Below, piece by piece: positions 13,026 through 44,168 of a stretch of DNA of 64,000 nt (position 1 is the first letter of the stretch; each line of letters opens with the position of its first letter). The DNA comes from Alphaproteobacteria bacterium (GTDB lineage Bacteria > Pseudomonadota > Alphaproteobacteria > SP197). Under the pieces are notes generated by a model. That model searched no databases. It had not been told where the DNA came from and saw only the letters and a list, made by a program, of their open reading frames with translations. The DNA is taken from positions 64,001 through 128,000 of the forward strand of contig OZ219746.1 in assembly GCA_964291265.2 (NCBI GenBank), written 5' to 3'. A program made the position numbers and the translations under genes.

Positions 13026-15215
13026 TCAACCCGACGTGATCAGCGTGCGGTAAAGACCGTCGGTTTCGATCAGTTCATCGTGCCGGCCTTCCTGGACAAC
13101 CCGGCCACCGTCGAGCACGACGATCCGGTCGGCGTCCCGGATCGTGCTGAGCCGATGGGCAATGATCAGGCAGGTGCAACCGCGCTGGCGGAGGTTGTCG
13201 TCAATCTCCATTTCGGTTGCAGGATCGAGTGCGGCGGTGGCTTCATCGAACACGATGATGTGCGGATCGGGCGCAAGCGCCCGCGCGATTTCAAGACGCT
13301 GGCGTTGACCGCCGCTCAAGTTTCGGCCGCCTTCCTCTATCGGCGCGTCGTACTTGTCCGGTCGCGCCATGATGTCGTCGAGAATGGCGGCATCGCGCAG
13401 GGCCTGGGCGACCCGACGGTTGCTGACGGTCGAGTTCCAGAGGGTGATGTTGTCCCGCACGCTTCCCTCGAACAGGACGATTTCCTGATCGACATAGGCG
13501 ACAGTCTCGGCGATGTGGCTCGGGGACAGGTCCTGCAGCCGGTCTGCATCGATGCGCACCGTACCGGACCAGGGATTGAGCAGGCCGCAAACCAGCTTGC
13601 CGACGGTCGACTTGCCGCTGCCGGAACCGCCGACAAGGGCAACCCGCTGGCCCGGATTGATCTCAAGGCTGAAATTCTCGATCAGCGGCGCCTCCTGCCG
13701 GTTGTAGCCGAAGGTGACATTGTCGAGCCTGACAAAACCCGAGCAGCGCGGACGTTCGCCCTCGTCGGACCGGCGCATGCCGCGAACGACCCGCCGATCC
13801 GGCCTGTAGTTCAACACGTCGTCGAGCCGGGCAATGTCGGCCTTGACTGTCTGCAGGCTGGCGCCGAACTGGATCAGACCCTCAATCGGCTGGGAGAAGC
13901 TGCGCGCAAGACTCTGAAAGGCAACCAGCCCGCCGACGGTCAGCACGCCCTCCAGGAGGCGCAGACCACCGACGCCCAGAATGGCAACGGTCGTCAGTGC
14001 CGTGAGCAGAGGCGGCACGACGTTCAGGAGGCTTGTCAACCGGCCGAGGTCCTGCTGGGCGGCCACGACGTTGGCATGCATGCCGGACAGGCGTGAGAAC
14101 AGGTCGCTCTCCGTGCCGTTGGCCTTCAGCGTTTCGATCATGCTGAGGCCGGCGACCGACGCACCCGCGACCTTGCCCTGTTCCTTGAGCAGGCGGCGGC
14201 TGGCATTCTCCCGGGCGCTTGAGACCACGCGAAGGGCGAACAGGTTGACGATCCCCATGGCGAACACGACGAGCGCCAGGATCATGTCGTAGGCCAGCAT
14301 GACGGCCGCATAGGCGATCATGGTGAGCATGTTGACGGCATTGGTGGCGAGCTCGCCTGAAACCACCCGCGCCACATTGTCGTTCGACGCGACCCGGTTG
14401 GCGATGTCGCCCGCAAAACGTTGCGAGAAGAATGCCATGGGCAGCGTCATGACATGCCAGAAGAATTGCGATGTCGCGACGAGCGAAAGCTTGGTTTCCA
14501 TACGCGCAAGACAGTGCTGCTGGAACCAGGTGAGCAGGCCTTGCAGGACGGTCACGAGTGCGAGGCCGATGAGAAGCGGTACAACGAGATTCTCGCTCCT
14601 CCCGACCAGGATCTCATCCACGAAGACCTTGGAGATGGTCGGCAGGGCAAGCCCTGGAACCAGCAGCGCGAGAGTCGCGAGGACAACGAACAGCAAGGCG
14701 GACCGCGCCCGGCCCAGACGAGCGAACAAGCCCTGCAGCAGACTCGGTCGCGCACCGCTTCGATCGAACTGCTGCGTCGGCTGGAAGGCGAGGCAGACCC
14801 CGGTGAACCCCTCGTCGAACTCCTGCATGGATATGCGGCGCGGGCCTTCGGCCGGATCGTTGATGTAGACGAGACCGCGCCGGATGCCCTCGAGCACGAT
14901 GAAATGGTTGAAATTCCAGAACACGATCATGGGGAAGGGAAGATCGAACAGGCGTCCCGGATCGCGGCGGAAGCCGCGCGCATCGAGGCCGAGTTCCCTG
15001 GCCGCCCGCAGCATGTTGACCGCCTTGCTGCCGTCGCGCGACACGCCGCAGCGCACCCGCAGTTCTTCCAGGGGCACCCACTTGCCGTAGCGGGCAAGAA
15101 TCATCGCCAGACAGGCGGCGCCGCATTCCGTCGCCTCCATCTGCAGGATGGTGGGTACGCTTCGCCTGCCGCCGCGCCTGCGGGAAAGGTTCGCTCGCAG
15201 CTTGGTGGAGTTCAC
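13026..15215 (-). CDS. NHLP bacteriocin ABC transporter with C39 peptidase (double-Gly leader removal)
   Basis: QMEATECGAACL with catalytic Cys; FWNFNHF; GGSGSGKST; LSGGQRQR. Confidence 0.93.
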   Translation of the reverse strand: MNSTKLRANLSRRRGGRRSVPTILQMEATECGAACLAMILARYGKWVPLEELRVRCGVSRDGSKAVNMLRAARELGLDARGFRRDPGRLFDLPFPMIVFWNFNHFIVLEGIRRGLVYINDPAEGPRRISMQEFDEGFTGVCLAFQPTQQFDRSGARPSLLQGLFARLGRARSALLFVVLATLALLVPGLALPTISKVFVDEILVGRSENLVVPLLIGLALVTVLQGLLTWFQQHCLARMETKLSLVATSQFFWHVMTLPMAFFSQRFAGDIANRVASNDNVARVVSGELATNAVNMLTMIAYAAVMLAYDMILALVVFAMGIVNLFALRVVSSARENASRRLLKEQGKVAGASVAGLSMIETLKANGTESDLFSRLSGMHANVVAAQQDLGRLTSLLNVVPPLLTALTTVAILGVGGLRLLEGVLTVGGLVAFQSLARSFSQPIEGLIQFGASLQTVKADIARLDDVLNYRPDRRVVRGMRRSDEGERPRCSGFVRLDNVTFGYNRQEAPLIENFSLEINPGQRVALVGGSGSGKSTVGKLVCGLLNPWSGTVRIDADRLQDLSPSHIAETVAYVDQEIVLFEGSVRDNITLWNSTVSNRRVAQALRDAAILDDIMARPDKYDAPIEEGGRNLSGGQRQRLEIARALAPDPHIIVFDEATAALDPATEMEIDDNLRQRGCTCLIIAHRLSTIRDADRIVVLDGGRVVQEGRHDELIETDGLYRTLITSG

Positions 15216-16462
15216 TGTCCGGTCAGCTTCTTCAGCAGCGGAATGGCCATGGCGATGGGGCGCTGGCTCGTGACCTTGACATCGATGCTGGCGAGCGTTC
15301 CGGAGATCAGCGCCTCACTTGCTCCCTTCGTCGTGGTCCAGGCGAAACCGCTCGCCGTCGATGGATCGGGCAGCAGCGTCACGCGGCTGGCGTATGGCGG
15401 CCCGTTCTGGGAGAAGATCTGGGCAAGCTCCTGATTCTGCAACACGGTGACCATGCCGCTGACGCTTACCGGAAACTCCGACACGTTCTCGACCAGACCC
15501 TTGACAAAGCCATGCGTCTGCGGCTGCGTGGTCGCAGGAGAGACCAACACCTTCATTCCCGGCTCGACCCGTTTGCCATCGGCCGGTGGAATGTACATCA
15601 GCACCTCGACTTCTTCGTTCGAGCCGGTCTTGATGCTGAGCACGGGCTGGCCCGAAACGAGCACCGAACCCAGGGCGGCCTTGATCTCGATGACACCGCC
15701 GGAAACCGGCGCCAGGATCTGTTGCGACTGCAGACGTGTCTGGAGTTCACGAGCCCGCAGGCGCGCCTCCTGAAGACGGGTGTCGGCACTGCCGACCTGG
15801 ACGCGGTGATCGTTGAGGCGCGTCAACTCCCGCGCTTCCAGCGTCTCGAGCCGGTGAGTGGTTTCGAACAACTCCTGCAGTGCGCGGTCAAACGCCTGCT
15901 GGCTGCGCTCCAGGGTAACCCTTGTGACGACGCGTTCATCGTAGAGCTGGCGGTGGCTGTCGAGGCGTTCACGGGCGCTGTGCACTGCCTCGCGGCCAAT
16001 GCTCTCGAGCTGTTCAAGGCGAGCCTGCTGCTTGGCCACGTTGTTCTTGAACAACTGATCCTCTGCTTCGAACGCTGCCTTGAGATTGTCCAGGGCCCGT
16101 TCGCTCTCTTCAACCAAGGCGAGAGCGCTGCGGTAGCGTTCCGTCAGATCTGGATTCACGGTCGTGGCAACGACCTCTCCCTTGTCAACCGATTCACCGA
16201 CCGTGAAGGCGATATCGGTCAGCGTGCCCGTATCGACGGCCACGGCGTCAATCACCGTGCCACCGGTGTTCAGCAGTATTCCGTTGGCACTCACATAGGT
16301 GGAAACGGATCCCCACACCGACCAGGCCACCAGCGCGGCGACGAATGCCATCAAGGCGCACAGCGCCACCCATTGCCTGGCCGAAACGATCGAAAGTGCA
16401 CGATCGATCTTCTCCGGTTCGGACAGCCGGTCCAGCGCTGCCTTTCTGAACAGTTCCGCCAT
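15212..16462 (-). CDS. NHLP bacteriocin secretion protein (HlyD membrane fusion protein)
   Basis: LFRKAALDRLSEPEKID N-terminus, one TM helix, coiled coil, C-terminal RPIAMAIP. Confidence 0.9.
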   Translation of the reverse strand: MAELFRKAALDRLSEPEKIDRALSIVSARQWVALCALMAFVAALVAWSVWGSVSTYVSANGILLNTGGTVIDAVAVDTGTLTDIAFTVGESVDKGEVVATTVNPDLTERYRSALALVEESERALDNLKAAFEAEDQLFKNNVAKQQARLEQLESIGREAVHSARERLDSHRQLYDERVVTRVTLERSQQAFDRALQELFETTHRLETLEARELTRLNDHRVQVGSADTRLQEARLRARELQTRLQSQQILAPVSGGVIEIKAALGSVLVSGQPVLSIKTGSNEEVEVLMYIPPADGKRVEPGMKVLVSPATTQPQTHGFVKGLVENVSEFPVSVSGMVTVLQNQELAQIFSQNGPPYASRVTLLPDPSTASGFAWTTTKGASEALISGTLASIDVKVTSQRPIAMAIPLLKKLTGQ

Positions 16463-16535: not shown

Positions 16536-18059
16536 TCATCTGGTTGAGAGGATCCCGGGAGCGAGCTTCCACTTCACCTCGCGGGCCTCGCGGGCGAGAT
16601 CCGGCACACCGGCAATCCCGAGTCTCCGCGAGGTCAGCGCACCCACCGCTTCCAGCAGGCGATAGGCCTCGACGGTCACGTCGCGTTCAGCCGAAAGCGC
16701 GCTGATCTGGCGCGTCACGACACGCCGTTCGGCATCCAGAATCTCCCGGGTCGTGCGCTCTCCGAACTCGGCCTCGCGCTTGATCCCTGCCAGGGCGGTG
16801 CGTGATGCCTCGACTGCGGTCGCAAAGGCCGCCTGCCTCTGCCGGGCCGCTTCCAGGTTCCGCCAGGCGCTTTCGACCAGTTGCGAGGCACTGCGCACCG
16901 CATCGAGCCATTCGTTGCGGCGCTGGGCCTGAAGATGTCGGGCTCGGCGAATCCGCGGACCTGTCACCCCCGCCTGATAGATCGGCACGGTCAGCTGCAG
17001 CGTCAGGCTCATTTCGGTACTGTCCGGAAGAGCCGTTCCTGTCTGTCTCTTGGCCGCAGCCCTGAGGTCGACGCGCGGTCCGAGCTCGGCCGTGGCCACG
17101 AGAACCGACGCCTCGGCCACGCGAATCGCGGTTTCGGCGGCGCGAACGGCGGGCCGCTGCGTGCGGGCTGTCCGGTGTGCTTCCTCCAGGGTTCGCGGCA
17201 GGCCGGCCGGCAGGCCTGCCGCCTCGAGACCGTCCGGCACCAGGCCGGTCAACTGGAGAAGGCGGGCTCTGTGGACGTTCAGTTCGCTCGTCGCCGCCAC
17301 CATGTCCGCTGCGGCGATCTCCCGTTCCGCCTCGGCCTGGGCGACATCGGCGCCGGTCCGGTCCCCGACATCGTATTGCGCCTTGACGTCGCGAACCTGC
17401 TCATCGAAGGCGGCAAGGGAGGCTGCGCGCAACTCCACGACCCGTTCCGCCCGGAGCGTGTCGAGATAGACTGTCGCGGCGCGAAGAAGAACGGTCTGTT
17501 CGCTGTCTTCCACGGAGGCGTGGCTCCTTGACACGCTCTGGACAGCCCTTCGGAGCGCAGCGGAGTCGCGGCCGCTGCGAAACAGGTTCTGCGTGATGGA
17601 GAATGTCCAGGAGCGCGGAGAAGAATACTGGGTTCGGTCAGCACCCAGGGAAAAGGACCGATCGGAGACGATCCGTTGCCGACCGGCGCTGGCGTTGAAC
17701 TGGAGCGTGGGCAGCCATGCCGAAACGGCCTCGGGCACATCCTGGTGGCGCGCGCGCGCAGCCTCGCGGACCGCGGCCAGACCCGGGTTCGACGCCGCGG
17801 CCGCGGCCAGCACCTCCTCGATGGTCAGCGCCGAGGCCGGCGCTGCGGTGAGCGCAAGGGCAGTGCCGAGCCAGGCAAGGCACGAACGAGCGATGCGCCA
17901 TCGCAAGGGCATGGTCCTGCAACCAGGCCGCGTGCGTCTGCGGCGCCCCTGGCGGCGGCCCGAGGCTTCCATCGGGCATGCTTGCCGTCGGGCAATTCTC
18001 AGCCATCCCCCGTGCAGCGGCCGGGCCGGACCGCTTTCCGCCATTGCCGTTCGGTTCAT
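16536..18059 (-). CDS. TolC-family outer membrane channel
   Basis: Signal peptide then LTIEEVLAAAAASNPGL; QNLFRSG; VPIYQAG; FGERTTREILDAE; start uncertain (18059 overlaps the upstream stop as ATGA). Confidence 0.85.
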   Translation of the reverse strand: MNRTAMAESGPARPLHGGWLRIARRQACPMEASGRRQGRRRRTRPGCRTMPLRWRIARSCLAWLGTALALTAAPASALTIEEVLAAAAASNPGLAAVREAARARHQDVPEAVSAWLPTLQFNASAGRQRIVSDRSFSLGADRTQYSSPRSWTFSITQNLFRSGRDSAALRRAVQSVSRSHASVEDSEQTVLLRAATVYLDTLRAERVVELRAASLAAFDEQVRDVKAQYDVGDRTGADVAQAEAEREIAAADMVAATSELNVHRARLLQLTGLVPDGLEAAGLPAGLPRTLEEAHRTARTQRPAVRAAETAIRVAEASVLVATAELGPRVDLRAAAKRQTGTALPDSTEMSLTLQLTVPIYQAGVTGPRIRRARHLQAQRRNEWLDAVRSASQLVESAWRNLEAARQRQAAFATAVEASRTALAGIKREAEFGERTTREILDAERRVVTRQISALSAERDVTVEAYRLLEAVGALTSRRLGIAGVPDLAREAREVKWKLAPGILSTR

Positions 18060-20356
18060 ATGAAGACCGCCACCGGGTTGAGATCGGCTTCGGCCTTGGG
18101 CGTTTCTCGCCACCCCATGGCAACCGGCACGTCGTACAGGCGGCCGGGAGCAAAACGCGGCCAGAAGTGACGCAATCCCGGCACGATGGTCCGGGCGACC
18201 GGCATACCGATATCCGGCCGGGTCTGGTCGAGCACCAGAAACTCCATGCCCCTCGCCTCAACCAGCGCCTGACAATACTCGACGTCATCCTTGATGTCGG
18301 TTGTCTGCGGCGCCGAATAGTCCCGGGCCAGACGTTGCCGCATCCGTTTGTCCGGCGCAAGATAGGGATGCTCGGCAAGTGTTGCATTGCGCCACCACCA
18401 GAGGCATTCCGGATCGTCATAGAGGTAGCCGTTGCCGTCGATGCCGACATCTCGAACGGCGACCAGATACTGGTTCAATTCGCACAGTGCACGGAAGGCG
18501 GCAATGCGTGGTTCGAAATGGGCGCCGGCCGAATACAGGATGTCTTCGGCCTCCTTGTCAGTCCGGCGCGACACCGCAACGAATACCGGGATACCGAGAT
18601 CGGTGGTCGCATCAAGCATTCGCAGATCGCGGTGGAAGGACTTGTAGTATTCGCGCGCGCGGTCGAAATAGGCTTCGCCGAAGCTGTCGAAGTCCAGCTC
18701 GGGAAGCGATACCCGATTGTACCACCAGCAGGCAAAGGCATCGCGCTCGACCAGCTCGAAAAATCCCTGGAGAATCGCCTCCTCCAGCGTGTTGCCTGAC
18801 GCGCAGCCGTTCGAATCCGGACCGCAATAGATCTGGCCGTCCTCCAGCGGTGCGGCGAAATAGAGCATGGAGGTGGGCAGGTGGCGGTGACACCCCCGAG
18901 TCATCGACCAGACCGGTGTCCAGCTCATCTCCACGGCAGGATCGAAACGCCTCGGGACAAAATTGAATCGCGCTCTGCGCGCGTTGATCTCTTCGGCGTG
19001 GTCGTACTGCCAGTCGCTGAAGAGCTGGACCGTGTTGGGATGGATCGCTTCGCCGTCGGCGAAATCCTCAAGGCGCGCGCGGCGGCGGATCTCGTCGCCG
19101 TGAAAGGCGCCGGAAACGCGCTCGATCGCCTCGCACAAAGCGCTCGCTTCGGCCTGTTCGGGACTGGCGCCCTTGCCCGAACTCTTGCTCCTCAGCGTGG
19201 TGCGCAGCAGGCGCAGGTTGTCGCTCCTCAGCGCTATGTTGCTGCCGGACCAGTAGACATGCAGCCACGGGTCCGTTTCGTTCGTGGAACGCACCAGTTG
19301 GGTGACCACGCCGCTCACCGGGCTGACCAGGTGACGGTAACGGGCAATCGTCTCCCGCGGTGGCACCGAACGCGAGCCGCCGGAATTGGCCACCGTTCGG
19401 GGGCATGGTGCGAGCGTGACTGGAACCGGCGCCCGGTCGGGGCGGTAGAGCGCCGCGTCGCCACAGACCCCGCATTGCGGTCGGCGGAACACCCGATGCC
19501 GGTCGTTTTCGAGACTGTGGGCATCGACCGAGATCGCGTGCTCATGGAGCGCCGCCCTCTCCCCGAAGACGATCCATCTGGCAATCTCGACCGCGGCGAG
19601 ACCGAGGATTGCCTCGACAAGCGGTGCTGGCGCGACTCGGCGCAGGACAGCGCCCCCCCCGCCGGTGCGCAGGAAACTCTCGATTTCGCGATTGCTGCGC
19701 AGACGATGGGCCAGACAGGCCCAGCACGGTCCGCCGTCGCCAGGCCGGAAAACCGGACCGAAAAGCGCCGTCAGGCCGTTGGGCGCCACCGGCAGCCACG
19801 GAAGTCCGGATGCCAGGTGACGGCGGTTGGCCTCGGCGCAGTCCTCACCGAGCAGGTCGTCGCACAGGATGACCGAGAGGGTCGGATTGTCGTCGGTCAC
19901 GGTGACGCCCATCGCAGCAAGCGCGGCACCGAGACCGTCGCCCGTCACCGCAACCCGCACGGCGTCCAGCCGTGTCTCCGCCCAGCGTGGCGACGCGCCG
20001 CACGCACTCCAGAAGGCAGCCATGTCCCGGCTGATCGTGGCGTCTGCTGAGACAACGTAGCCCTTCGACGCCAGCGAGACCAGCGCGGTCTGGACTTCGA
20101 TCGCCGAATACCGGTCGGCCAGCGCCGCGGCGATTTCGTGGCGCGAGTGGCTGCCGTCAAGCAGGGGCAGGATATCGATGTAGCGCCGGCCGTGGAGAAC
20201 TCCGCTGAACACCTCGGACACGATCAGCGCGGTCGTGTCGTCGTGAAGGCGAACATCGAGATGCGGCGCCAGCATCGGCCGCTCGACAAGGCCGCGGTCG
20301 TCCGCCAGACTGCACAGGATGGCCATTGACGGGGGAGTGACCGAATCGGCGGCCAT
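18056..20356 (-). CDS. Fused RRE/E1-YcaO cyclodehydratase (PatD/TruD-like), paralog A
   Basis: PCWAC and CGVC; ASALCEAIER; SNGCASGNTLEEAILQGFFELVERD; C-terminus LNPVAVFI. Confidence 0.93.
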   Translation of the reverse strand: MAADSVTPPSMAILCSLADDRGLVERPMLAPHLDVRLHDDTTALIVSEVFSGVLHGRRYIDILPLLDGSHSRHEIAAALADRYSAIEVQTALVSLASKGYVVSADATISRDMAAFWSACGASPRWAETRLDAVRVAVTGDGLGAALAAMGVTVTDDNPTLSVILCDDLLGEDCAEANRRHLASGLPWLPVAPNGLTALFGPVFRPGDGGPCWACLAHRLRSNREIESFLRTGGGGAVLRRVAPAPLVEAILGLAAVEIARWIVFGERAALHEHAISVDAHSLENDRHRVFRRPQCGVCGDAALYRPDRAPVPVTLAPCPRTVANSGGSRSVPPRETIARYRHLVSPVSGVVTQLVRSTNETDPWLHVYWSGSNIALRSDNLRLLRTTLRSKSSGKGASPEQAEASALCEAIERVSGAFHGDEIRRRARLEDFADGEAIHPNTVQLFSDWQYDHAEEINARRARFNFVPRRFDPAVEMSWTPVWSMTRGCHRHLPTSMLYFAAPLEDGQIYCGPDSNGCASGNTLEEAILQGFFELVERDAFACWWYNRVSLPELDFDSFGEAYFDRAREYYKSFHRDLRMLDATTDLGIPVFVAVSRRTDKEAEDILYSAGAHFEPRIAAFRALCELNQYLVAVRDVGIDGNGYLYDDPECLWWWRNATLAEHPYLAPDKRMRQRLARDYSAPQTTDIKDDVEYCQALVEARGMEFLVLDQTRPDIGMPVARTIVPGLRHFWPRFAPGRLYDVPVAMGWRETPKAEADLNPVAVFI

Positions 20357-20357
20357 C

Positions 20358-21764
20358 TCAATTCGCCTGTCCGCTGTCCTTCGGAGGACCGCCGAGGATG
20401 AAGTCGCCGACCGTACCCTCGATCACCGGATCCAGGCCGGTCACCCGCGCGAAACGCGCCGAGTTCCCCGTACCGAGGCCGCACGGAGAAAGACCGAGAT
20501 CCGTCGCCACGAGATACAGGGTCTGGTAAAGTGCGCCCACATTGCGCAGAATCACGCCATAGGCGATCGATCGGTACTTCCACATGACCCTGGCGAAACG
20601 GGCGCTGAACGCCAGCACGATCTGAGGGTTGGCGAGGTGTCCCGTCGCCACTCTGGCATCCTCCACGATCGCCTCCACCTCGGTCGTGCGCCCGGCGATC
20701 GCGACCAGTTCATGGGTCGCTGCGTCGTAGTGGTACAGGCCGGACTCCAGGCCGTCACAGCGATCGACCACCGGATAGATCTCGAGTTCGTAGCTGGCGC
20801 CGCCTGAGGGATAAGGCCGTCTCGTGACTTCAACATCGTAGGACGGCCCCGCGGGATCGCCGACCGGGACCGCAAAGCGTTCGAGAATCCGCGCGGCGCG
20901 GTCGAGCAGCGCGCCGAGGTCCGCCAGGGAGATCGGACGGGCTTCGTCATAGACCCTCTCCGATCGGCGCCGTTCGAGAATCCGGACGAGCGACTCTCCT
21001 CCGGCGTCCTCCGGCGCAACCGGCAACGCGGTCCGCCGGCCAGGCCAGGGGGGACGGACGCCAGGCGGCGGATCGACCTGGCCGACGAACGGGAAGATTC
21101 CGCCGATCGGATCACCATGCCAGCCCGGCCGATGATGCCAATGATACAGCAGGTCATGAAACTCCCACTGCATCAAGGCCTCGCTGCGCGGGTCGCCTGC
21201 CGCACCCCCGGTCTCCAGAAAGCCCTCGGCGGCCAGGGCCCGTCGGATGACAGGGACCTCGAGGCGGCTCGGATCGGAGAGGCGGAAGCGTGTGCCGGCC
21301 AGCGGAGATTCCAGTATCCAGTCCCGCCCGGAACGGCGCAGGCAGGCAAAGCGGTCGAGGTTGGCCTCCGGCGGCGGCATGTCCTCCGCCAGGCGGGGGG
21401 CATGGCCGTCCCACTGCGGCTGCATCACTGCCTGTTCGCCCGTCTCGTCGATCACGAGCAGTTCCATCCCCCGGAACCGATAGAGGGTCTGCAGGGCGAC
21501 AAGATAGGAGGCTGCGCACGACGGCCCGCCGGCCTCGATGACCGCGTCGCGGAGTTCGCTCAGCGGGGCGCCGGCGCGAAGCATCGTGTTGGCCGTCCCA
21601 TAGGCCCGCGCGTAGGGCGCGAAAGGCGGTCCGATCCCCAGCACCGAGTCCTCGACGACAAGGGACCTGCCGTCCGCAGACGCTGCCAGCTTTCGCCCGG
21701 CGGGCAGGCGGGCGAGGATCGCGGGCTCCCCGAGCAGATCGAAAAATCCCATCCGTCCCTCCAA
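20358..21764 (-). CDS. SagB/ThcOx-type FMN-dependent azoline dehydrogenase
   Basis: WEFHDLLYH; ERRRSER; RPYPSGGASYELEIY; KY motif in WKYRSIAY; LYLVATDLGLSPCGLG. Confidence 0.92.
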   Translation of the reverse strand: MEGRMGFFDLLGEPAILARLPAGRKLAASADGRSLVVEDSVLGIGPPFAPYARAYGTANTMLRAGAPLSELRDAVIEAGGPSCAASYLVALQTLYRFRGMELLVIDETGEQAVMQPQWDGHAPRLAEDMPPPEANLDRFACLRRSGRDWILESPLAGTRFRLSDPSRLEVPVIRRALAAEGFLETGGAAGDPRSEALMQWEFHDLLYHWHHRPGWHGDPIGGIFPFVGQVDPPPGVRPPWPGRRTALPVAPEDAGGESLVRILERRRSERVYDEARPISLADLGALLDRAARILERFAVPVGDPAGPSYDVEVTRRPYPSGGASYELEIYPVVDRCDGLESGLYHYDAATHELVAIAGRTTEVEAIVEDARVATGHLANPQIVLAFSARFARVMWKYRSIAYGVILRNVGALYQTLYLVATDLGLSPCGLGTGNSARFARVTGLDPVIEGTVGDFILGGPPKDSGQAN

Positions 21765-24080
21765 TCAGACGAACACTGCGACGGGGTTCAGATCGGCTTC
21801 CGCGGTCGGCTCGGCAAGCCATCCCATCTTGATCGGCACGTCATAGAGACGCCCCGGAGCGAACCGCGCCCAGAAATGCCTCATGCCCGGCACGATGGTG
21901 CGGGCGACCGGCATGCCGATATCCGGCCGGGTCTGGTCGAGGACCAGGAATTCCATGCCGAGGTCCTCGACCAGTGACCGACAATGCTCGACATCCTCGC
22001 GCGTATCGGTGGTCCGGGGAGCGCGATAGTGCTCCACGCTTCGCTCGGGCAGGGCGGAGTCCGGCACCAGGTAGGGATGCTCTCTCACGCGGGCATTCTT
22101 CCACCACCACAGGCTCTCGGGGTCGTCGAAGAGATAGCCGGTGCCGTCGGCCTTCACGTCCCGGACTGCGGTCAACTGCTGGTTCAGTTCGCACACGGCC
22201 CTCATGCCCGCGATACCGGGGTCCAGGTGGGCGCCGGCGGCAAACACGATATCCTCCTGGTCCTTGTCCGTTCGACGCGATACCGCAGCGAACACCGGAA
22301 TGCCGATATCGTGGGTCACGTCGATCATCCAGAGATCGCGGTTGCAGGCGGCGTAGTAGTCGCGCGCTTCCGCAAGGTAGGCGTCGCCGAAACTGTCGAG
22401 CGCCACCGCGGGACGCCGGAGTCGGTTGTACCACCAGCAAGCGAAGGCATCACGCTCCACCAGTTCCAGGAATCCCTGCAGGATGGCCTCCTCCAGGGTG
22501 TTGCCGGCCGCACAGCCGTTGGTGTCCGGGCCGAAGAACGGCTCGTCATGTTCCTGCGGCATGGAGAAATAGAGCATCCCGGTGGGCAGGTAGCGATGGC
22601 ATTCCTGCGTTAACGACCAGACCGGGGACCAGCTCATCTCAACGGTCGTGTCGAAACGTGCCGGAACATAGGCGAACTTCCGTTGCAGGGCATTGAGTTC
22701 CGCGGCGTTGTCGTATTGCCGGTCGCTGTAGTGCAGAACCGTTTCCGGGTGGATGGCTTCGCCATTGCGAAAATCCACGAAGCGGGTCCGGCGGCGGATT
22801 TCGTCGCCGCGGTAAGCGCCGGAATGCCGCTCGATGGCTTCGCACAGCGCGCTCGCTTCGGCCTGTTCTCGCGTGCTTCCCTTGCCGGAGTTAAGGGAGC
22901 GGATGCTGGTGCGCAACGCCAGCAGGCTGCGCGCCTGCATCGCGAGGTTGGCGCCGGCCACATTGACATGCAGCCAGGAATCCCGCTCGTCGGTGATGCG
23001 CAGCAACCGATTCACCGCCCCGGTGACCGGACTGACGAGGTGACGGTAGCGGCGCAGGGTGTCCTGCGGCGGCACGGAGCGAAAACCGCCGCTGGTGCGT
23101 ACCGGTTTCGGGCTGGGGGCGAGACGCAGCGGCGAAGCCGGCCGGTCCACGCGGTACAGCGCCGGGTCGCCGCAGGACCGGCACTGCGGCCGCCGCGTGA
23201 CCGGATGGATGGTGGTCCTCATGCCGAGTGCTTCCAGTGCCATGGTATGGCGGTGGAGCGTGGCGCTGTCCCCGAAGACGACCCATTTGGCAAGTTCCAG
23301 GGCCGCCAGCCCGATCACGACGTCGGACAGACTGTCCGGCGTATTCGCGGGGAACGCGAACCCGGCCGGGAGGCCGCGCAGATAGCTTGCGATCTCGACA
23401 TTGCTGCCGATCCGGCTCGCCAGACAGGTCCAGCACGGCGCGTCCTGCTCAGCAGGGCGGAACACCGGGCCAAAGAGGCAAAAGACGCCCACGGGCTTGA
23501 CCAGAGCCCAGGGGATGCCTGACTCGAGATGCCGGCGGTTGGTCCGCGCATGAGCATCGTCCAGGTAATCGTCCGTGACGACGACCGACAGCGTCGGCCT
23601 GTCCGGCCCAACGGTCAGCCCGAGGTCTGCGAGCGCCGCGCCGAGCCGCCCGTCGTCTCCGAAGAGGGCAATCCGGGCGGCGCCGAGACGCCGTTCGGCC
23701 CATCTCGGCGTGGCCCCCTGCGAACACCAGAACGCGGCGGACACCCTGTCCATGGCGAAGTCGGCCGAGACGACGCAACCCTTGGCTGCAAGCGAAACCA
23801 TGGCGGTCTGAACGCGCAGCGCCGAATGCCGCTCCGACAGTTCGGCGACGATCTCGCGGCGGGTATGCCCGCTCTCGAGCAGAGGCGCGAGGTCGCGATA
23901 CAACTCTCCGGCCAAGAGGATGCTCGCGGTCTCGGACGCCAGGATAAGGGCCCCGTCCTCCGAAACGCGGGAAGCAAGATGGGGTGCGAGCAACGGCCTT
24001 TCGATGATGCCACGGTCGCATTCGGTGAACCGTTGCGGCGGCGCGAATATCGGTTTCCACCCCGTTCGGTCGACAGACAC
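21765..24080 (-). CDS. Fused RRE/E1-YcaO cyclodehydratase, paralog B
   Basis: PCWTC and CRSC; ASALCEAIER; TNGCAAGNTLEEAILQGFLELVERD; C-terminus LNPVAVFV. Confidence 0.93.
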   Translation of the reverse strand: MSVDRTGWKPIFAPPQRFTECDRGIIERPLLAPHLASRVSEDGALILASETASILLAGELYRDLAPLLESGHTRREIVAELSERHSALRVQTAMVSLAAKGCVVSADFAMDRVSAAFWCSQGATPRWAERRLGAARIALFGDDGRLGAALADLGLTVGPDRPTLSVVVTDDYLDDAHARTNRRHLESGIPWALVKPVGVFCLFGPVFRPAEQDAPCWTCLASRIGSNVEIASYLRGLPAGFAFPANTPDSLSDVVIGLAALELAKWVVFGDSATLHRHTMALEALGMRTTIHPVTRRPQCRSCGDPALYRVDRPASPLRLAPSPKPVRTSGGFRSVPPQDTLRRYRHLVSPVTGAVNRLLRITDERDSWLHVNVAGANLAMQARSLLALRTSIRSLNSGKGSTREQAEASALCEAIERHSGAYRGDEIRRRTRFVDFRNGEAIHPETVLHYSDRQYDNAAELNALQRKFAYVPARFDTTVEMSWSPVWSLTQECHRYLPTGMLYFSMPQEHDEPFFGPDTNGCAAGNTLEEAILQGFLELVERDAFACWWYNRLRRPAVALDSFGDAYLAEARDYYAACNRDLWMIDVTHDIGIPVFAAVSRRTDKDQEDIVFAAGAHLDPGIAGMRAVCELNQQLTAVRDVKADGTGYLFDDPESLWWWKNARVREHPYLVPDSALPERSVEHYRAPRTTDTREDVEHCRSLVEDLGMEFLVLDQTRPDIGMPVARTIVPGMRHFWARFAPGRLYDVPIKMGWLAEPTAEADLNPVAVFV

Positions 24081-24153: not shown

Positions 24154-24441
24154 TCATTCATCCTTGCGCGCCACGACATCCCGGTAGGTCGAAGGCGCCG
24201 GCAAGAGGATATGGACGCGGTCATGGGTGTTGAAGACCAGCTTGACCTTGGCCCCTTCCGGGAAATCGAAACCCTCGGACCTGAGGACGGCGGTCGGGTC
24301 GGCGTCCATCTTCGCCTTGAAGTCGGGGTCGCCGTAGTACTTCGCCACCACGTCTGCATAGAGTTGCTGACGTTCCTTCAGGTCCCCCGACGAAAGAAGG
24401 TCGGTGACCAGGGCGTCGATCGGCTTCAGTGGTTTTTCCAC
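24154..24441 (-). CDS. Leader-only NHLP (proteusin-like) peptide, 95 aa, no double-Gly and no core
   Basis: RBS GGAGGAGAG then GTG; VVAKYYGDPDFKAKMDADPTAVLRSEGFDFPEGAKVKLVFNTHDRVHILLPAP matches the NHLP leader pattern. Confidence 0.8.
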   Translation of the reverse strand: MEKPLKPIDALVTDLLSSGDLKERQQLYADVVAKYYGDPDFKAKMDADPTAVLRSEGFDFPEGAKVKLVFNTHDRVHILLPAPSTYRDVVARKDE

Positions 24442-24487: not shown

Positions 24488-24907
24488 CTAGCTGGCGCTG
24501 CCCGCGGTGCCCGCCGTGCCCGCCGTGGAAAACGAACTGAAGAAGGTACTGGTCTGGAAGGTACTCGCCGAGCTGACGCTGCCCGCGCTGCCAGCCGTGG
24601 CGCCACCCGACACCGCGCTCAGGCTCTCGTCAGCCAGGTCCATGTTCGGGTCGGGCGGCAAGATGAAATGCACGACCTCATCGGTGTTCGCGACCACGTC
24701 GACCTGCATGCCGACGACGGGAACGTCGAAACCGAAGGCCTTGTACACCTCGGTGCCGCTGGCTTCATCGATCGAGGAGCGGAACTCCTCGTCGCTCCGG
24801 TACCGGTCGGCGGTCTCGAGGAATCGCTCGTAGCTCTTCGTATATGTCCCCATGGCCATCGGCGACATGTCGATGTTGTCGAGAAAGTCATTGCTTGGGA
24901 CGTTCAT
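24488..24907 (-). CDS. NHLP/proteusin precursor 1; core ATAGSAGSVSSASTFQTSTFFSSFSTAGTAGTAGSAS (24491-24601)
   Basis: RBS AGGAGA; leader VANTDEVVHFILPPDP and LADESLSAVSGG double-Gly site; 37-aa Ser/Thr-rich core. Confidence 0.92.
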   Translation of the reverse strand: MNVPSNDFLDNIDMSPMAMGTYTKSYERFLETADRYRSDEEFRSSIDEASGTEVYKAFGFDVPVVGMQVDVVANTDEVVHFILPPDPNMDLADESLSAVSGGATAGSAGSVSSASTFQTSTFFSSFSTAGTAGTAGSAS

Positions 24908-24982
24908 GGTTGTGTCTCCTTGGCAAATCTTGTCTGAGGGGATCGTTGTCGGCAGGCCGGTGCGTTGCGCAAGGCCTCAGCC

Positions 24983-25372
24983 TCAACCAGCCGAACCCGC
25001 CGATCCGGCGGTGGATGCACTGCCGAGGCTGGAAAAGGACGTGAAGCAGAGGAAGGTGCTCGCCGATCCGACAGTGCCGGCCGTGCTGGCCGTGCTGCCG
25101 CCGGAAATCTGGCTCAACTGCTCATCCGCCAGATCGCTGTTGGGATCGGGCGGCATGACGAAGTGCGTCACCTCGTCGGAATCCATGAGAAACCGATAAT
25201 CCACTCCCTCCAGGCGTGTCATCCCGAACTCGTCGAAGACATCGTCGTTGTCGCCGCGGTCAATCCGGTCACGGAAAGCCGCATCGGTGTGGTAGCGGTC
25301 GGAAATGGCGACGACGAGATCACGGCGATCATCGTTCATTTCCACTTCCTGCATGAACTGCTGGCTGTTCAT
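24983..25372 (-). CDS. NHLP/proteusin precursor 2; core STASTAGTVGSASTFLCFTSFSSLGSASTAGSAGSAG (24986-25096)
   Basis: Leader THFVMPPDP and LADEQLSQISGG; 37-aa core; true start may be ATG 25339. Confidence 0.92.
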   Translation of the reverse strand: MNSQQFMQEVEMNDDRRDLVVAISDRYHTDAAFRDRIDRGDNDDVFDEFGMTRLEGVDYRFLMDSDEVTHFVMPPDPNSDLADEQLSQISGGSTASTAGTVGSASTFLCFTSFSSLGSASTAGSAGSAG

Positions 25373-25433: not shown

Positions 25434-25638
25434 GACGTTCGGACACATTCGACGATGTCGTGGCGGATCACGGTGACAGGGGTTCGACCGTGGCGGCGGC
25501 CCGGGGCATGGCTCGGTGTCTTCGTCGTTCCGCAGATACGGCCCGATCCTTCTGTCCGCCGGGACATTGACATTACACTGCGCCACGCTGGATGGCTGAC
25601 CCCGATTGGCCCTTTCACAGGAAGGCTCAAGCAGGCTT

Positions 25639-28149
25639 ATGGACCTCGACATTCTCATCGCCCGGGCGTCGCCGCCGCCGGAGCGCGGCGGCGACGGGCC
25701 GTTCGTCATGGCCCCCACCGACCCCGACTCCCGGTCTCGCCGCGAAGGAAGGCTTCTCGACGCCTTCGGCTCGCGGCAGGCGCTGGCCCGACATGCCGAG
25801 GGGCTGGGGTTGTCCGTGGGCGCCTATCTGGCGAGATTCGGCGATGTCCGCCTGGAGGGTCCCGCGCCGGACTGGGGTTGCGCCTTGCGGGAGATCCTCG
25901 CCCGGCTGGCTGATACCGAGTCGCCATTCTCGGCCGTCTATCCGTGGGCCCGCGGCCGCATCGAGGCGGAATGGCCCGGTGGCCTGCCGCACGGCGCCGG
26001 CGCGCTGGACGGGGCGGTGTCCCATCTCGAATGGCGTTTCCGCGCGATCCTGATGCAGACCATGCGGTATGAGGCCAGGTTGGGGGCGTCGCGCGTGACC
26101 TGGGCGGCGCGGTTCGCCCGCAGTCCGGCGCTGGCCTACGCGCTCGGCCGCACGCTGGCCGACTGGCGTGCGGACCTCGTTCGGATGCTGCGCCATGCAG
26201 CCGAAGACCGGGCCGAACTGTCCCGGCGCTTCTTCGACGGTAGAGATCCCGGGCTGCTGGTCGGTATCGAGCAGGGACTCGGCGATCCGCATGCCGGAGG
26301 GCGGTCGGTCGCAATCCTGCGCTTCGCCAACGGTTCGGTCGTTTTCAAGCCCAAGGACCTGCGAATCGCCGGCGTCATGCGGGAGATCGTCGGCCTGATC
26401 TCCAGCGTCGAGCTTTCGCCGCCCTCCACGGTGCCGCGTGCGGGCTATGCCTGGGAAAGGGAGTACGCGCCGCAGCCGGTCGCCGCCGCCGCGGATGCCG
26501 ACCGTTTCTATCGGGCGCTCGGCGGCTGGCTTGCCTTGCTCCAGGCCATGAACGCGAGCGATTTCTGGTTCGACAACCTGATCGCCGACGGCGCCACGCC
26601 GCGGTTCGTTGATTTCGAAACGGTCCTGCAGCCGGCCTCGGCATGGCCGCCCCGGATACGGCGCCTGGTCGATGAGGAAGCGATCAGCTTCAACATGCGA
26701 GTGGCCAGCGTCGGCATCCTGCCGCTTCTAATGTCGATCAGGGAGGGTCTGGAACCGACCGACCTCGGGTGCCTCTGCCAACCGGGGGAGCACCGCACGC
26801 CGATGGGTGCCGCAGAGAATGGCGGTCTGTTTGTGTGGCAGGAAGAGCGATATGCCCCGCGCTACGAGTCCGGCGACTTCGCGGACAGCGCGGCGCATTT
26901 CGACGCCCTCGAGGACGGCTATCTCCGGGTCGCCCGGGAGCTGGGGTCGGCGGCGACGCAGGAGCGAATCCTGGCGGCGCTCGAAAATGTGCCGGACGCG
27001 CAGCTTCGCGTCCTCCTGATCGACACCTGGACCTGCTATCGGATCGTTCAGGAATCCCTCCTTCCCGGCACCCTGTCAGACGGTGTTTGGCGCGAGATCG
27101 TCTTGCACAAGATGCTGCCCCGCCACGCCGAGCTGACCGGCCCTCTCCGCGAGGCGGCGGTGCGCGACATGCGCCGCCTCGACATCCCGCTGTTCCTGAC
27201 CGCGCCGGCCTCTCGGGACCTTCTGGGGGTGGAGGGTGAGGCGTGGCGGAACGTGTTCAGGAAGGATGCCATTGCCACCTTGCGCGGCGCATTCGGCACC
27301 ATGTCTGCAGCCACCGAACGGGAACGGCTGGCGTGGCTGCGTTCGTCGTTTTCCCTGCGCGCAGCCAATCCGCCTCGGCAGACCCCGGAGCGCGGCCGGC
27401 CGGCGCCGGCAAGGCCGGAGGATCTTCTGGCCTGGGCAGATCAGATCGCGAGCGACGTTCGGGATCTCGCCGTGACGAACGTGTGCGGATATCCGACCTG
27501 GGTCGGCATTGTGCACGAGGTTCACTTCGGAAGACGTTGCATGGCGCCGCTCCCCATCGACATCCTGTCGGGCCGCGCAGGAATCGCTCAGGCGTTGCTT
27601 GAGCTGAGCGACAGGCTCGGTCGTGCGGACCTGGCGGACCTCGCGTGCGAGACCCTGAGGGGGGCGGCGCGCGATTATGCCGAGGCCATGGACTTCAGCC
27701 AGGATCTGGGAGTCGGATATGCTGTCGGTGCCGGCGGACTCCTGCACATGCTGGTGTGCGAGCCCTCTCTGCGGGACGAAGCGCAGATGGTCTACCGAAG
27801 CGCTGCGGAAAAGGAAGCATGGATGCAGTCCGGGAGCGACTTCGTGTCCGGCCTCGCTGGTTGGAAGGACGCGGTTCTGACCCTCGGCGGCAGGGTTCCG
27901 GAGCGGCACGGCCGACAGCGGCCTTATGCGCCCTCGGCCCTGCCTCGACTCGCTCCCTGGCTGGACCCCGGACAGGCGAAGCCGGTCTGCGCCGACCGGC
28001 GGGCGGCAGCGCTCATGAGGCGGGATCGTGATCGACTGGGAAGCTGGTTCGCCGAGAGATGGGCCGATGATCGACACGATCTCTCGGGGGTGGATGGGAC
28101 CCCCGCGCTCGCCGTCGCCTTCGCGCGTCTGGCGGATGGCCCGGCTTAG
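25639..28149 (+). CDS. LanM-like (DUF4135) dehydratase with a truncated/degenerate LanC cyclase domain
   Basis: GLGDPHAGGRSV; VFKPKDL; SDFWFDNLIA; VDFETVL; LRVLLIDT; DIPLF; cyclase remnant GRAGIA but no WCHG/CHG Zn ligands. Confidence 0.85.
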   Translation: MDLDILIARASPPPERGGDGPFVMAPTDPDSRSRREGRLLDAFGSRQALARHAEGLGLSVGAYLARFGDVRLEGPAPDWGCALREILARLADTESPFSAVYPWARGRIEAEWPGGLPHGAGALDGAVSHLEWRFRAILMQTMRYEARLGASRVTWAARFARSPALAYALGRTLADWRADLVRMLRHAAEDRAELSRRFFDGRDPGLLVGIEQGLGDPHAGGRSVAILRFANGSVVFKPKDLRIAGVMREIVGLISSVELSPPSTVPRAGYAWEREYAPQPVAAAADADRFYRALGGWLALLQAMNASDFWFDNLIADGATPRFVDFETVLQPASAWPPRIRRLVDEEAISFNMRVASVGILPLLMSIREGLEPTDLGCLCQPGEHRTPMGAAENGGLFVWQEERYAPRYESGDFADSAAHFDALEDGYLRVARELGSAATQERILAALENVPDAQLRVLLIDTWTCYRIVQESLLPGTLSDGVWREIVLHKMLPRHAELTGPLREAAVRDMRRLDIPLFLTAPASRDLLGVEGEAWRNVFRKDAIATLRGAFGTMSAATERERLAWLRSSFSLRAANPPRQTPERGRPAPARPEDLLAWADQIASDVRDLAVTNVCGYPTWVGIVHEVHFGRRCMAPLPIDILSGRAGIAQALLELSDRLGRADLADLACETLRGAARDYAEAMDFSQDLGVGYAVGAGGLLHMLVCEPSLRDEAQMVYRSAAEKEAWMQSGSDFVSGLAGWKDAVLTLGGRVPERHGRQRPYAPSALPRLAPWLDPGQAKPVCADRRAAALMRRDRDRLGSWFAERWADDRHDLSGVDGTPALAVAFARLADGPA

Positions 28150-29412: not shown

Positions 29413-31014
29413 ATGAGCCGCCGCCGTCTTCCGATCGGGATCCAGGACTTTCCGACGATTCGCAGCGAGGATTTCTACTACGTCGACAAGACTTCGCTCG
29501 TCCGGCGTCTTGTGAACGAGGGGCGCCACTACTTCCTGTCGCGTCCGCGCCGCTTCGGCAAGAGCCTGCTGCTCGACACCTTGGGATCGCTGTTTGCCTG
29601 CCACGAACCCCTGTTCCGGGGACTCGCCATCCACCCCCACTGGGACTGGTCCTCGCCGCATCCGGTGGTACGGCTGAGCTTCGGCGGGAAGTACAACGAA
29701 CCCGGGGACATCGAGCGCAACATCCTGACCCAACTCGAACTGGTCGAACGCCATGCCGGGCTCCCGCCCGCTGCCTGCAGGGCCGGACCGGAACGCCTTC
29801 TCGACATCCTCGACCGCCTGCACGGCGCCACCGGCCGGCAGGTGGTGGTGCTGGTGGACGAGTACGACAAGCCGGTCCTCGACATGCTTCACGATCCCGG
29901 GCTTGCGAGGGCGAACCGGGACTACCTGCGCGGCTTCTACGGCATCGTCAAGGACAGCGCCGAACACGTCCGCTTCGTCTTCGTTACTGGTGTCAGCATG
30001 TTCTCCAAGGCCAGTGTGTTCTCAGGCCTCAACAACCTGAAGGACATCAGCCTCGATCCGCGCTTCGCCACGATCTGCGGCTACCGCGAGGAGGATCTCG
30101 ACCGTGTGTTCGGGCCTGAGCTTGTCGGACTGGACCGCGAGAAGGTCCGCACCTGGTACAACGGCTACCACTGGCGGGGCGGGGAGCGGGTCTACAATCC
30201 CTGGGATGTGCTCCTGTTCCTGCGGAACCGCGAGTTCCGTCCCTACTGGTTCGAGACCGGATCGCCGGACTTCCTGTTCCGCATGCTGATGGAGAAGTCG
30301 GTGAGCCCGATGGAGCTGGAGGGGCGGCTGGCGGGCACGTCCCTGGTCTCGAAGTTCGATGTCGACGACATCGCCATCGAGGCGCTGCTCTTCCAGACCG
30401 GCTACCTGACCATCGCGGGGGAGGAGAAGCAGGGCCACAGGACCCTCTACCGGCTGGACTATCCCAACCTCGAGGTCCGGCTCAGCCTCAACGACGAACT
30501 GCTTGCCTGGCTGGGCAGGCAGGGGGTCGAGCCGCTGGAGCGGGGCCGCGAGTTCTGCGCCCTGCTTGAGGCGAACGACTTCGCCGGCTTCGGCGAGAAG
30601 CTTCGCGCCTGGCTTGCGGGCATTCCCTACCAGTGGCACGCGAAGGGCGACCTGGCGCGCTACGAGGCCTGGTATGCGAGCCTTCTCTACATGTGCCTGC
30701 GTTCGGTCGGGGTGGACTTCGACGTGGAGGAGGCCTCGCACCGCGGCCGTGCGGACATGGTGGTGCGCCTCGGCGGTCAGGTCTTCGTGCTGGAGTTCAA
30801 GATGGCCGAGGGCGAGGGGGACGGCGCTGCGGCGCTGGATGCGGCGCTGGCGCAGATGCGCGAGCGTGGCTATGCCGAGACCTGCCGCGACCACGGCGGC
30901 CCGGTCCACCTCGTCGGCGTGGCCTGCGGACGCGAGGCGCGCAACCTCCTCGACATCCGCGCCGAGACCTGCATGAGCGACGCCCGCGAACGCCTGCCTG
31001 ACACCACGAAGTGA
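29413..31014 (+). CDS. AAA-ATPase-like domain plus PD-(D/E)XK nuclease (copy 2)
   Basis: Same motifs as 3805-5370; roughly 90% similar by eye; also shares ~140 bp of upstream sequence starting CCCTTGCTCATGGACAGGCAGGCGGATAG. Confidence 0.9.
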   Translation: MSRRRLPIGIQDFPTIRSEDFYYVDKTSLVRRLVNEGRHYFLSRPRRFGKSLLLDTLGSLFACHEPLFRGLAIHPHWDWSSPHPVVRLSFGGKYNEPGDIERNILTQLELVERHAGLPPAACRAGPERLLDILDRLHGATGRQVVVLVDEYDKPVLDMLHDPGLARANRDYLRGFYGIVKDSAEHVRFVFVTGVSMFSKASVFSGLNNLKDISLDPRFATICGYREEDLDRVFGPELVGLDREKVRTWYNGYHWRGGERVYNPWDVLLFLRNREFRPYWFETGSPDFLFRMLMEKSVSPMELEGRLAGTSLVSKFDVDDIAIEALLFQTGYLTIAGEEKQGHRTLYRLDYPNLEVRLSLNDELLAWLGRQGVEPLERGREFCALLEANDFAGFGEKLRAWLAGIPYQWHAKGDLARYEAWYASLLYMCLRSVGVDFDVEEASHRGRADMVVRLGGQVFVLEFKMAEGEGDGAAALDAALAQMRERGYAETCRDHGGPVHLVGVACGREARNLLDIRAETCMSDARERLPDTTK

Positions 31015-43506: not shown

Positions 43507-44168
43507 GACGACGCCTCCACCGCCATGACTGCCGCCAGCACGGCGAGCCGCTCGCCTTCGGGCATCGTCCGGTAGCGCCGCGCCCAGCTCTCTGCGAGGC
43601 GCTTGATGCGCTGGCGGTCGATCGAGTTCCTGCCCGCACACGTATGCCAGTGCGGTCGGCCCGGTGCGAAGTTGAACCACAGCTTCTCGGTGACAACGCA
43701 GGCCTGGTTGTTGACCTGGACCTCGGCCGAGCGCCAGCCGGCGAGGTGCGTGTCGTAGAGCCGCGAGGGATAGCCGGAGATCATCACCTGGCAGGGCAGC
43801 GACGTCAGGATGTCGAGGAGCGCAACATGGTCATCGTCCGTGCAGTCGAAGCGGTAGCGGCGCTGCGACCGGCGCGTCGACTGCACGTAAGGCGGGTCGC
43901 AGTAGACCAGCTCGCGGCCCTGGAAGGCGAAGGTCTCGAGAAAACGCAGGGCGCAGCCTTGGTGAAGCTCCACCGGATAGTCACAGCGGAAGGTGTCGAT
44001 CGCCCGGCGGTTGAGGTCAATGCCGATGCTGCGCAGCGCCGGTGGCTTGCGCTTCATGATCGCGCCGCCCCCAAGGAACGCCTCGATGTACACGTCATGC
44101 GGCGGCATGGCCGCGACGATCGCCTGGCTCAGACCCGTCGTCGCCTTCGATCCATACCATGCCGCCAT
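43494..44168 (-). CDS. Small N6-adenine DNA methyltransferase (passenger of the inner IS)
   Basis: Near-identical to 40916-41590; overlaps the tnpC start by 13 bp. Confidence 0.88.
   Translation of the reverse strand: MAAWYGSKATTGLSQAIVAAMPPHDVYIEAFLGGGAIMKRKPPALRSIGIDLNRRAIDTFRCDYPVELHQGCALRFLETFAFQGRELVYCDPPYVQSTRRSQRRYRFDCTDDDHVALLDILTSLPCQVMISGYPSRLYDTHLAGWRSAEVQVNNQACVVTEKLWFNFAPGRPHWHTCAGRNSIDRQRIKRLAESWARRYRTMPEGERLAVLAAVMAVEASSWRA

Follow-up and report, generated by a model that had tools for sequence, protein, structure and literature searches.

The 64,000-nucleotide stretch of alphaproteobacterial DNA analysed here, which we call the window, carries a gene cluster for two precursor peptides whose cores are built from successive three-residue units. 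Codon changes among orthologues point in a clear direction, towards selection of this triad pattern at the protein level. Judging from the genes present and by analogy with characterized systems, we consider it probable that the cluster specifies a dehydrazole-type pathway, in which azoles would form at the second slot of each triad, Ser residues in the first slot would then become Dha, and the products would be cleaved after Gly-Gly and leave the cell by type I export. The triad code of azoles and dehydro residues is already published, as the chemistry of nostatin A, carnazolamide and phazolicin is in print; what we describe is therefore a widespread variant and not a new code. Its new features are Gly-rich cores of 12 triads, a clade of dehydratases with a His-to-Trp change and a short C-terminal domain, a spread over several phyla, and a conserved leader protein that has no core. 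As the triad unit is known, the code itself will not surprise RiPP specialists.

Two precursors with triad cores

Precursor A (24488..24907, minus strand; 139 aa) and precursor B (24983..25372, minus strand; 129 aa) share 51% identity over 106 aa. Each consists of a leader of the nitrile-hydratase-like (NHLP) type with an L-x4-L motif (LADESL in A, LADEQL in B), an S-G-G end and a core directly after it, which is the arrangement of a proteusin. The leader model TIGR03793 matched both with significant E-values that stayed below its cut-off of 50.9 bits (3.5e-10 and 39.6 bits for A; 1.4e-6 and 28 bits for B).

Core A (24491..24601, minus strand; core 1 of an earlier sequence-only reading) comprises 12 triads followed by Ser and has no Cys: ATA GSA GSV SSA STF QTS TFF SSF STA GTA GTA GSA S. 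Core B (24986..25096, minus strand; core 2 of that reading) comprises 12 unbroken triads followed by Gly and has one Cys: STA STA GTV GSA STF LCF TSF SSL GSA STA GSA GSA G. Translation and shuffle tests bore out this parse of two cores of equal length, 37 aa each, exactly as it had been written. The middle residue is Ser, Thr or Cys in 11 of the 12 triads of core A and in all 12 of core B, and the third residue is hydrophobic, counting Ala, in 11 (QTS being the exception) and 12 respectively. When the composition of each core was kept and the best of three registers allowed, shuffled sequences gave P = 0.0011 (A) and 3.5e-5 (B) for the middle-residue rule, and the full rule of Ser/Thr/Cys followed by a hydrophobe was matched by one (A) and none (B) of 200,000 shuffles. 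In a six-frame regular-expression scan of the 4.8-Mb genome, core B was the sole match with at least six consecutive triads. The pattern had been called strict for both cores. That word fits core B only, since both slot rules are satisfied together in just 10 of the 12 triads of core A, which is interrupted by the hinge QTS-TFF at triads 6–7, a central break that recurs throughout the family.

Ser or Thr stands directly before a cyclizable residue at four sites in core A and at six in core B (five Ser, one Thr). Neither core contains Asp, Glu, Lys, Arg or His, so the description of them as free of charge holds; phazolicin, a peptide discussed below, differs in carrying charged residues. The centre of each core is rich in Phe (positions 15, 20, 21 and 24 in A; 15, 18 and 21 in B), as had been noted, but this proved a local trait: at least three central Phe residues occur in 5 of 68 homologous cores, all of them from the three nearest loci.

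Genes of the cluster

Seven further genes for modification and export lie downstream of the precursors on the same strand. YcaO cyclodehydratase 1 (21765..24080, minus strand) is a fusion of RRE/E1-like and YcaO parts with a C-terminal PxAVFV, and scored over the cut-offs of TIGR03604 and TIGR03882. A SagB/ThcOx-type FMN dehydrogenase (20358..21764, minus strand; TIGR03605, PF00881, PF22767), predicted to take azoline to azole, is followed by YcaO cyclodehydratase 2 (18056..20356, minus strand), which is 60% identical to the first. A TolC outer-membrane channel (16536..18113, minus strand; TIGR01844), an NHLP-system HlyD adaptor (15212..16462, minus strand; TIGR03794), an NHLP exporter whose C39 peptidase would cleave after Gly-Gly (13026..15215, minus strand; TIGR03796 at 1034 bits, PF03412) and a second ABC subunit (10088..13021, minus strand; TIGR03797) make up the export route, the last three models all scoring over their cut-offs. 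A core-less NHLP-like protein of 95 aa (24154..24441, minus strand) has a GTG start with GGAGGAG upstream. The LanM-type dehydratase (25606..28149, plus strand) is transcribed divergently and combines a DUF4135 domain with a short LanC-like domain (approximately residues 604–847). The cluster ORFs that were scanned included no radical-SAM enzyme, methyltransferase or S8 protease, and the genome holds no further full copies of the cluster enzymes or precursors. Away from the cluster there is a YcaO remnant of 47–63 aa with 54–77% identity (C2:2481741-2481929 of the same assembly, G000).

Several features of the surroundings deserve mention. Just beyond the exporter (6303-9482, minus strand) lies the gene of a 1059-aa autotransporter. 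This protein contains a tandem array of four nearly identical units, each about 130 aa long, which include Trp and Cys and gave no convincing Pfam match; its C-terminal part has several paralogues elsewhere in the genome. The cluster is flanked by direct repeats in the form of two AAA-ATPase/PD-(D/E)XK genes (3358-5370 and 29413-31014, plus strand) that are 88% identical over 1.7 kb, and this family has 17 other long copies in the genome, a count that includes the left flanking one. Transposase genes, one ISKra4-like and two IS66, are found at 31801-33189, 42028-43680 and 44531-45520.

Selection on the cores and the triad code in the wider family

Codon differences were counted over orthologue pairs, which are not independent, although the direction is nonetheless clear. 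Four core A orthologues gave 60 synonymous against 9 non-synonymous differences (93:48 in the leader), and five core B orthologues gave 78 against 34 (93:75 in the leader). A fifth core A orthologue, outside the codon count, also keeps the register. All four slot-2 positions that vary among the orthologues exchange only Ser, Thr and Cys, and the variable slot-3 positions remain hydrophobic.

A period of three residues could also be a functionally meaningless by-product of 9-bp DNA duplications. The self-identity of the core DNA is indeed highest at lag 9 (0.51 and 0.52), but such a peak is given by any tripeptide repeat. We rejected duplication as an artefact, and regard it as the most remote of the readings considered here, on account of the large excess of synonymous over replacement changes, the alternation of AGY and TCN Ser codons within the cores, and the slot classes maintained across distant genomes.

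For a wider test, an alignment of the dehydratase was searched against species-representative genomes and gave 26 loci: 25 form a near clade (45–90% identity over the best segment) and one is an outlier (34%). The records are titled Alpha- and Gammaproteobacteria, Acidobacteriota (Vicinamibacteria, Ca. Marinacidobacterium), Ca. Binatia and Ca. Porisulfidus, and all genomes under those titles are metagenome-assembled. Some of the host genera are sponge-associated. At 22 of the loci, a profile of the leader picked up 132 NHLP ORFs: 17 are core-less, 8 have no recognizable cut site (two of these being additional core-less copies) and 107 carry cores, 103 of them distinct. The test set comprised the 68 cores of at least 30 aa, after one 140-aa tail had been dropped and 34 shorter cores left out.

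Conservation of the period of three in homologous cores had been proposed as a check on the code. Of these 68 cores, 31 are unbroken, having a single register with at least 90% Ser/Thr/Cys, 24 fit two registers with one shift, mostly of +1 around residue 18, and 13 fit neither description. In the unbroken cores, slot 2 is Ser, Thr or Cys in 351 of 373 triads, and consistently so except in the seventh triad, where 9 of 31 have Ser. Slot 1 is Gly in 175 triads, Ser in 113, Ala in 31 and Thr in 25, and slot 3 is chiefly Ala, Val, Phe, Leu or Ile. Every unbroken core has between two and six Ser or Thr residues immediately ahead of a slot-2 residue. A central C-S/T-S/T-x-P hinge is present in 15 of the 68 cores, and a central Pro in 34. 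The family plan read from these alignments is arm-hinge-arm, with arms that hold the code and a central hinge that breaks it; the failure of core A at QTS-TFF corresponds to this hinge, and core B is of the unbroken type. Two sets collected with the precursors as queries, which agree with the locus set but are biased toward similar cores, contained 24 unbroken cores of 36 and 30 of 105, with 10 and 48 shifted; their shuffled controls gave no unbroken core in either set, and 2 and 4 in two registers.

Three loci (L028, L016 and L020) hold precursor libraries of up to 16 precursor-type ORFs per locus. Two genomes (G044 and G046) have 33 and 44 NHLP-like matches, some with aromatic cores that are not made of triads.

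The LanM-type dehydratase

The window enzyme keeps the equivalents of CylM K274, D347, N352, D364, E366, R506 and T512, which are catalytic positions of CylM, and these are retained in 92–94 of its 94 near relatives. The position of CylM His349 is Trp in the enzyme and in all 94. The WCxG and CHG zinc motifs are absent here and occur in one and two of the 94, respectively; among 48 more distant matches, all Trp-type proteins are without them. The structural model (pLDDT 92) has a fold nearest to LicM2 and CylM. In a FastTree analysis of 56 proteins (12 of the 94 near matches, distant matches longer than 780 aa, an enzyme of Thalassospira and the window enzyme), the enzyme fell within a 37-row clade without the His or zinc ligands (support 100), separate from the LanM proteins that have them. 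Members of this clade include the Thalassospira marina enzyme and a DUF4135 protein of Cystobacter fuscus, a species named in PMC10676384, so that the link to the tree protein is at species level only. A YcaO gene lies within 10 kb of the dehydratase at 23 of the 25 near loci and elsewhere in the genome in the other two.

Thalassospira marina is a cultured strain, and its plasmid (NZ_CP024200.1, L032:11953-22736) carries a Trp-type LanM with YcaO, P450 and S53 peptidase genes. The LanM gene has as neighbours the YcaO gene and that of an NHLP precursor whose core is built of triads and which is annotated 'thiocillin family RiPP'. At the locus of the closest relative (L042:2320-4621), the second YcaO occupies two overlapping frames, through sequencing error or decay, and the dehydratase is about 13 kb away from the precursors.

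An enzyme of this ancestry might be expected to make lanthipeptides, dehydrating the cores and then closing thioether rings. It does match TIGR03897 (E 1e-75, below the cut-off), and its fold is that of LicM2 and CylM. The zinc-ligand motifs WCxG and CHG are missing, however, and cores with no Cys (A) and one Cys (B) offer little for such rings; we rejected a class II lanthipeptide, which we regard as very improbable.

Alternatively, the LanM-like protein might dehydrate nothing and serve for binding or as an accessory, leaving azole-only linear peptides with free slot-1 Ser as in phazolicin. The His349-to-Trp change would suit such a role, as would the C-terminal domain, which is modelled as a helical LanC-like fold of about 245 aa and is thus about 125 aa shorter than the 371-aa domain of the carnazolamide dehydratase CcaM, where, according to the available text of PMC10676384, the fused domain is required. 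Gly is also commoner than Ser at slot 1 by the counts above, and one genome of the same genus as that of the window (G022) has YcaO, dehydrogenase and exporter genes while LanM was not found there, which suggests that this lineage can do without the dehydration module. Against this reading stand the near-invariance of the remaining kinase and elimination residues in the 94 relatives, the fixation of Trp in every one of them and its occurrence in distant YcaO-linked enzymes, and the two to six Ser or Thr residues placed just before a slot-2 residue in every unbroken core. The conserved residues and the shared Trp point to a changed rather than a dead active site, and we think it quite unlikely that the peptides would carry azoles only. 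The His-to-Trp change may be of use as a marker for recognizing those LanM-type dehydratases that are linked to azole formation.

Predicted products and their role

In the dehydrazole-type pathway that we favour, the YcaO enzymes and the dehydrogenase would convert the middle Ser, Thr or Cys of each triad to an azole, and the LanM-type enzyme would subsequently dehydrate each Ser immediately preceding an azole. Slot 1 would then act as a switch, Gly being left untouched and Ser becoming Dha. The C39 exporter would remove the leader at Gly-Gly, and the two peptides released from the cell would be rigid and free of charge. We infer the order, azoles first and dehydration second, and the sites from carnazolamide and nostatin A. 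The reading as a whole is based on the enzymes of the cluster, the published chemistry of these two compounds and the confinement of slot-2 changes in the orthologues to Ser, Thr and Cys. The chemistry put forward in the sequence-only reading, a middle azole with a dehydro-Ser ahead of it, is thus probably right. The hinge of core A (triads 6–7) may follow a displaced register, as the centre of nostatin A does.

Fully modified core A was computed to contain 11 azoles and four Dha residues (S10, S13, S22 and S25), with S18, T19 and S37 free and a monoisotopic mass of 3059.17 Da. Fully modified core B was computed to contain 12 azoles and five Dha residues (S1, S4, S13, S22 and S28), at 2960.12 Da, or 2942.11 Da with an additional Dhb at T19. 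After removal of the leader, the N-terminal Dha of core B should turn into a ketone by hydrolysis, as general enamine chemistry suggests. With a core of 12 perfect triads, no epimerase or methylase, and exact masses predicted, the cluster makes an unusually clean and minimal test case. A chemical test for Dha-azole units is available (PMC13480372, in the text accessible). Complete conversion and bioactivity are not assured, because the available text on carnazolamide reports that its YcaO modified 8 of 20 Ser, Thr and Cys residues and that the product was inactive in the assays run (PMC10676384).

It had been proposed that the products, each alone or A and B together, might span membranes or bind metal ions. 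The absence of charged residues and the equal length of the cores would suit such roles, as would the presence of A-type and B-type cores (hinge and L-T/C-F-T-S types) together at eight loci (L007-L010, L024-L026 and L042). Azole macrocycles of the patellamide type bind copper. Yet the hydropathy of the unmodified cores is modest, with best 19-residue windows of 0.4 and 1.0, and the centre with at least three Phe is restricted to the nearest loci. A fixed A+B pair is possible, but the precursor sets look more like a library, given that three genomes with both core types have a single YcaO and that many related loci hold 4–16 varied precursors each. Characterized relatives are reported as binders of specific targets: nostatin A, which has the tripeptide unit in common with the cores here, is described as non-haemolytic up to 800 nM, with nanomolar cytotoxicity (PMC11583998), and as linked to V-ATPase, direct binding not being formally shown (10.64898/2026.03.27.714872), and phazolicin is reported to bind the ribosome, all according to the parts of these sources at hand. 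The membrane-spanning or metal-binding role thus found no support, and we rate it as unlikely. That the products are secreted inhibitors of a specific macromolecular target, and not pores, is by analogy with these relatives about an even bet. With 103 distinct cores at 22 loci, the family is in any case an untapped set of precursors related to a compound active at nanomolar concentration.

A conserved leader protein without a core

The core-less NHLP-like protein lacks the L-x4-L motif, the Gly-Gly and the core. Between distant loci it is 62–70% identical, as against 36–54% for the precursor leaders and 59–68% for YcaO. Its gene is present at 16 of the 25 near loci and elsewhere in all nine other genomes, hence in 25 of 25 near-clade genomes; the core-less ends were confirmed by translation in eight of the nine genomes with a copy outside the locus. 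It was not found in the genome of the 34% outlier.

The protein might supply a part of the leader in trans. For the YcaO system of PMC12455567, the available text describes a need for a helix-1 face of the leader (Gln7, Ala14 and Trp17) and for L-x4-L. When positions were mapped by spacing, 26 core-less proteins had Gln in 23, Ala in 26 and Tyr or Trp in 26 at the helix-1 places, and none had L-x4-L. Among 117 precursor-type ORFs, in turn, Ala occurred at position 14 in 17, position 17 was mostly Arg, His or Gln, and an L-x4-L-like motif was present in 91. This division of the two elements suggested a split leader.

The distribution of the gene points elsewhere. Among 40 relatives it occurs only in two genomes (G017 and G022), adjoining the exporter in both. 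LanM was not found in either of these, and YcaO was not found in G017, an assembly that is 94% complete, which weakens the idea of the core-less protein as a specific partner of YcaO or LanM. G017, G022 and the genome of the window are the three top scorers for TIGR03796; the gene is missing from 16 further genomes in which an NHLP exporter was matched. By this count the core-less protein tracks one exporter lineage, and a putative adaptor for export or cleavage is accordingly a better guess than a split leader. A complex prediction of the core-less protein with the N-terminal domain of YcaO-2 (residues 15–140) scored 0.00 twice, which is evidence neither way, and the ESM Atlas placed the protein in a generic NHLP cluster only (0.90). 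Its role should be easily testable.

Taken to its full extent, our picture is of a widely distributed family of 12-triad proteusins that has spread laterally in marine bacteria not yet in culture, with the longest regular azole ribbons in the literature searched, an arm-hinge-arm plan and up to 16 precursors per locus. The family would need a dedicated core-less leader in trans, either as an adaptor of the peptidase-exporter or to provide a helix-1 docking face since lost from the precursors. We offer this combined picture tentatively and think it somewhat doubtful in its entirety.

Spread of the cluster

Lateral spread is likely, since the near-clade dehydratase was found in none of 22 genomes of the same genus (three have distant matches), and copies 82–90% identical to it occur under records titled Alpha- and Gammaproteobacteria.

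Comparison with known systems

We found no paper on a family of Gly-rich 37–38-aa cores or on a core-less NHLP protein, which is weak evidence of absence as subscription journals were thinly covered. Many NHLP/YcaO clusters are known from sponge metagenomes, and such cores are not described in the available text of those reports (PMC9426513, PMC11832590). We rejected the srp sponge proteusins as a match, as the cores here have no LCCC-type motif (PMC11832590, available text). The NHLP family itself was defined by Haft, Basu and Mitchell (2010; PMC2887384), and its NHLP/TOMM clusters (TIGR03793/94/96/97) share with the present one the leader family, the Gly-Gly site, the fused cyclodehydratase and the three-gene exporter. 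The portion of that paper available to us calls the cores hypervariable and does not describe a triad-hinge-triad layout or a core-less member.

Phazolicin resembles the predicted products in having an azole at every third residue (PMC6783444), and goadsporin in having Dha next to azoles. Phazolicin differs from our prediction in being without Dha. In the available texts, neither these two nor the spongiicolazolicins are described as NHLP-leader peptides (PMC6783444, PMC11583998, PMC10676384), and the dehydratase of goadsporin is a split LanB, not a DUF4135 enzyme (PMC11583998, PMC10676384).

Nostatin A is closer. As far as the accessible text of Delawska et al. (PMC11583998) goes, it is a proteusin of tripeptide blocks, each opening with Dha or Dhb, continuing with a heterocycle and closing with a residue left unmodified, and similar blocks were noted there in phazolicin, the spongiicolazolicins and goadsporin. 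It also shares with our cores a mid-core break of register (at Pro15), and with our cluster a YcaO, an oxidase and a LanM-like enzyme. By the same partial comparison, the cores here differ in having no Pro, at most one Cys and frequent Gly at slot 1, and the cluster in having no radical-SAM enzymes, which argues against an alkyl-proline and probably against a bridge. The LanM-like enzyme of nostatin A, NstG, has 1075 aa, against 836–847 aa for the enzyme here.

The nearest counterparts are the dehydrazoles (Pei, Zhu and Nair 2023; PMC10676384), defined in the text available by an NHLP precursor, a YcaO/dehydrogenase pair and a DUF4135 domain fused to a zinc-less cyclase-like domain; the carnazolamide dehydratase is described as specific for Ser that precedes an azole, as working after cyclization and as having no need for the leader. 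Our cluster has in common with them a DUF4135 dehydratase without zinc-ligand motifs, syntenic with YcaO and dehydrogenase genes, an NHLP precursor, and cores rich in Ser, Thr and Cys with Ser directly ahead of cyclizable residues. Within the published descriptions, the differences from carnazolamide are cores that are 37 aa long, of 12 triads, Gly-rich and nearly free of Cys instead of 30 aa with eight azoles; a C39 exporter in place of the radical-SAM epimerase, methyltransferase and S8 protease; a dehydratase of 836–847 aa compared with 1015 aa for CcaM; and the extra core-less NHLP gene. The Ca. Thioglobus cluster noted in the same paper, in which one dehydratase is accompanied by two YcaOs and a number of precursors, is, from what that source gives, much like the present one. 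By these sequence-level features, with CcaM and NstG compared through their descriptions, the cluster is likely to be of the dehydrazole type.
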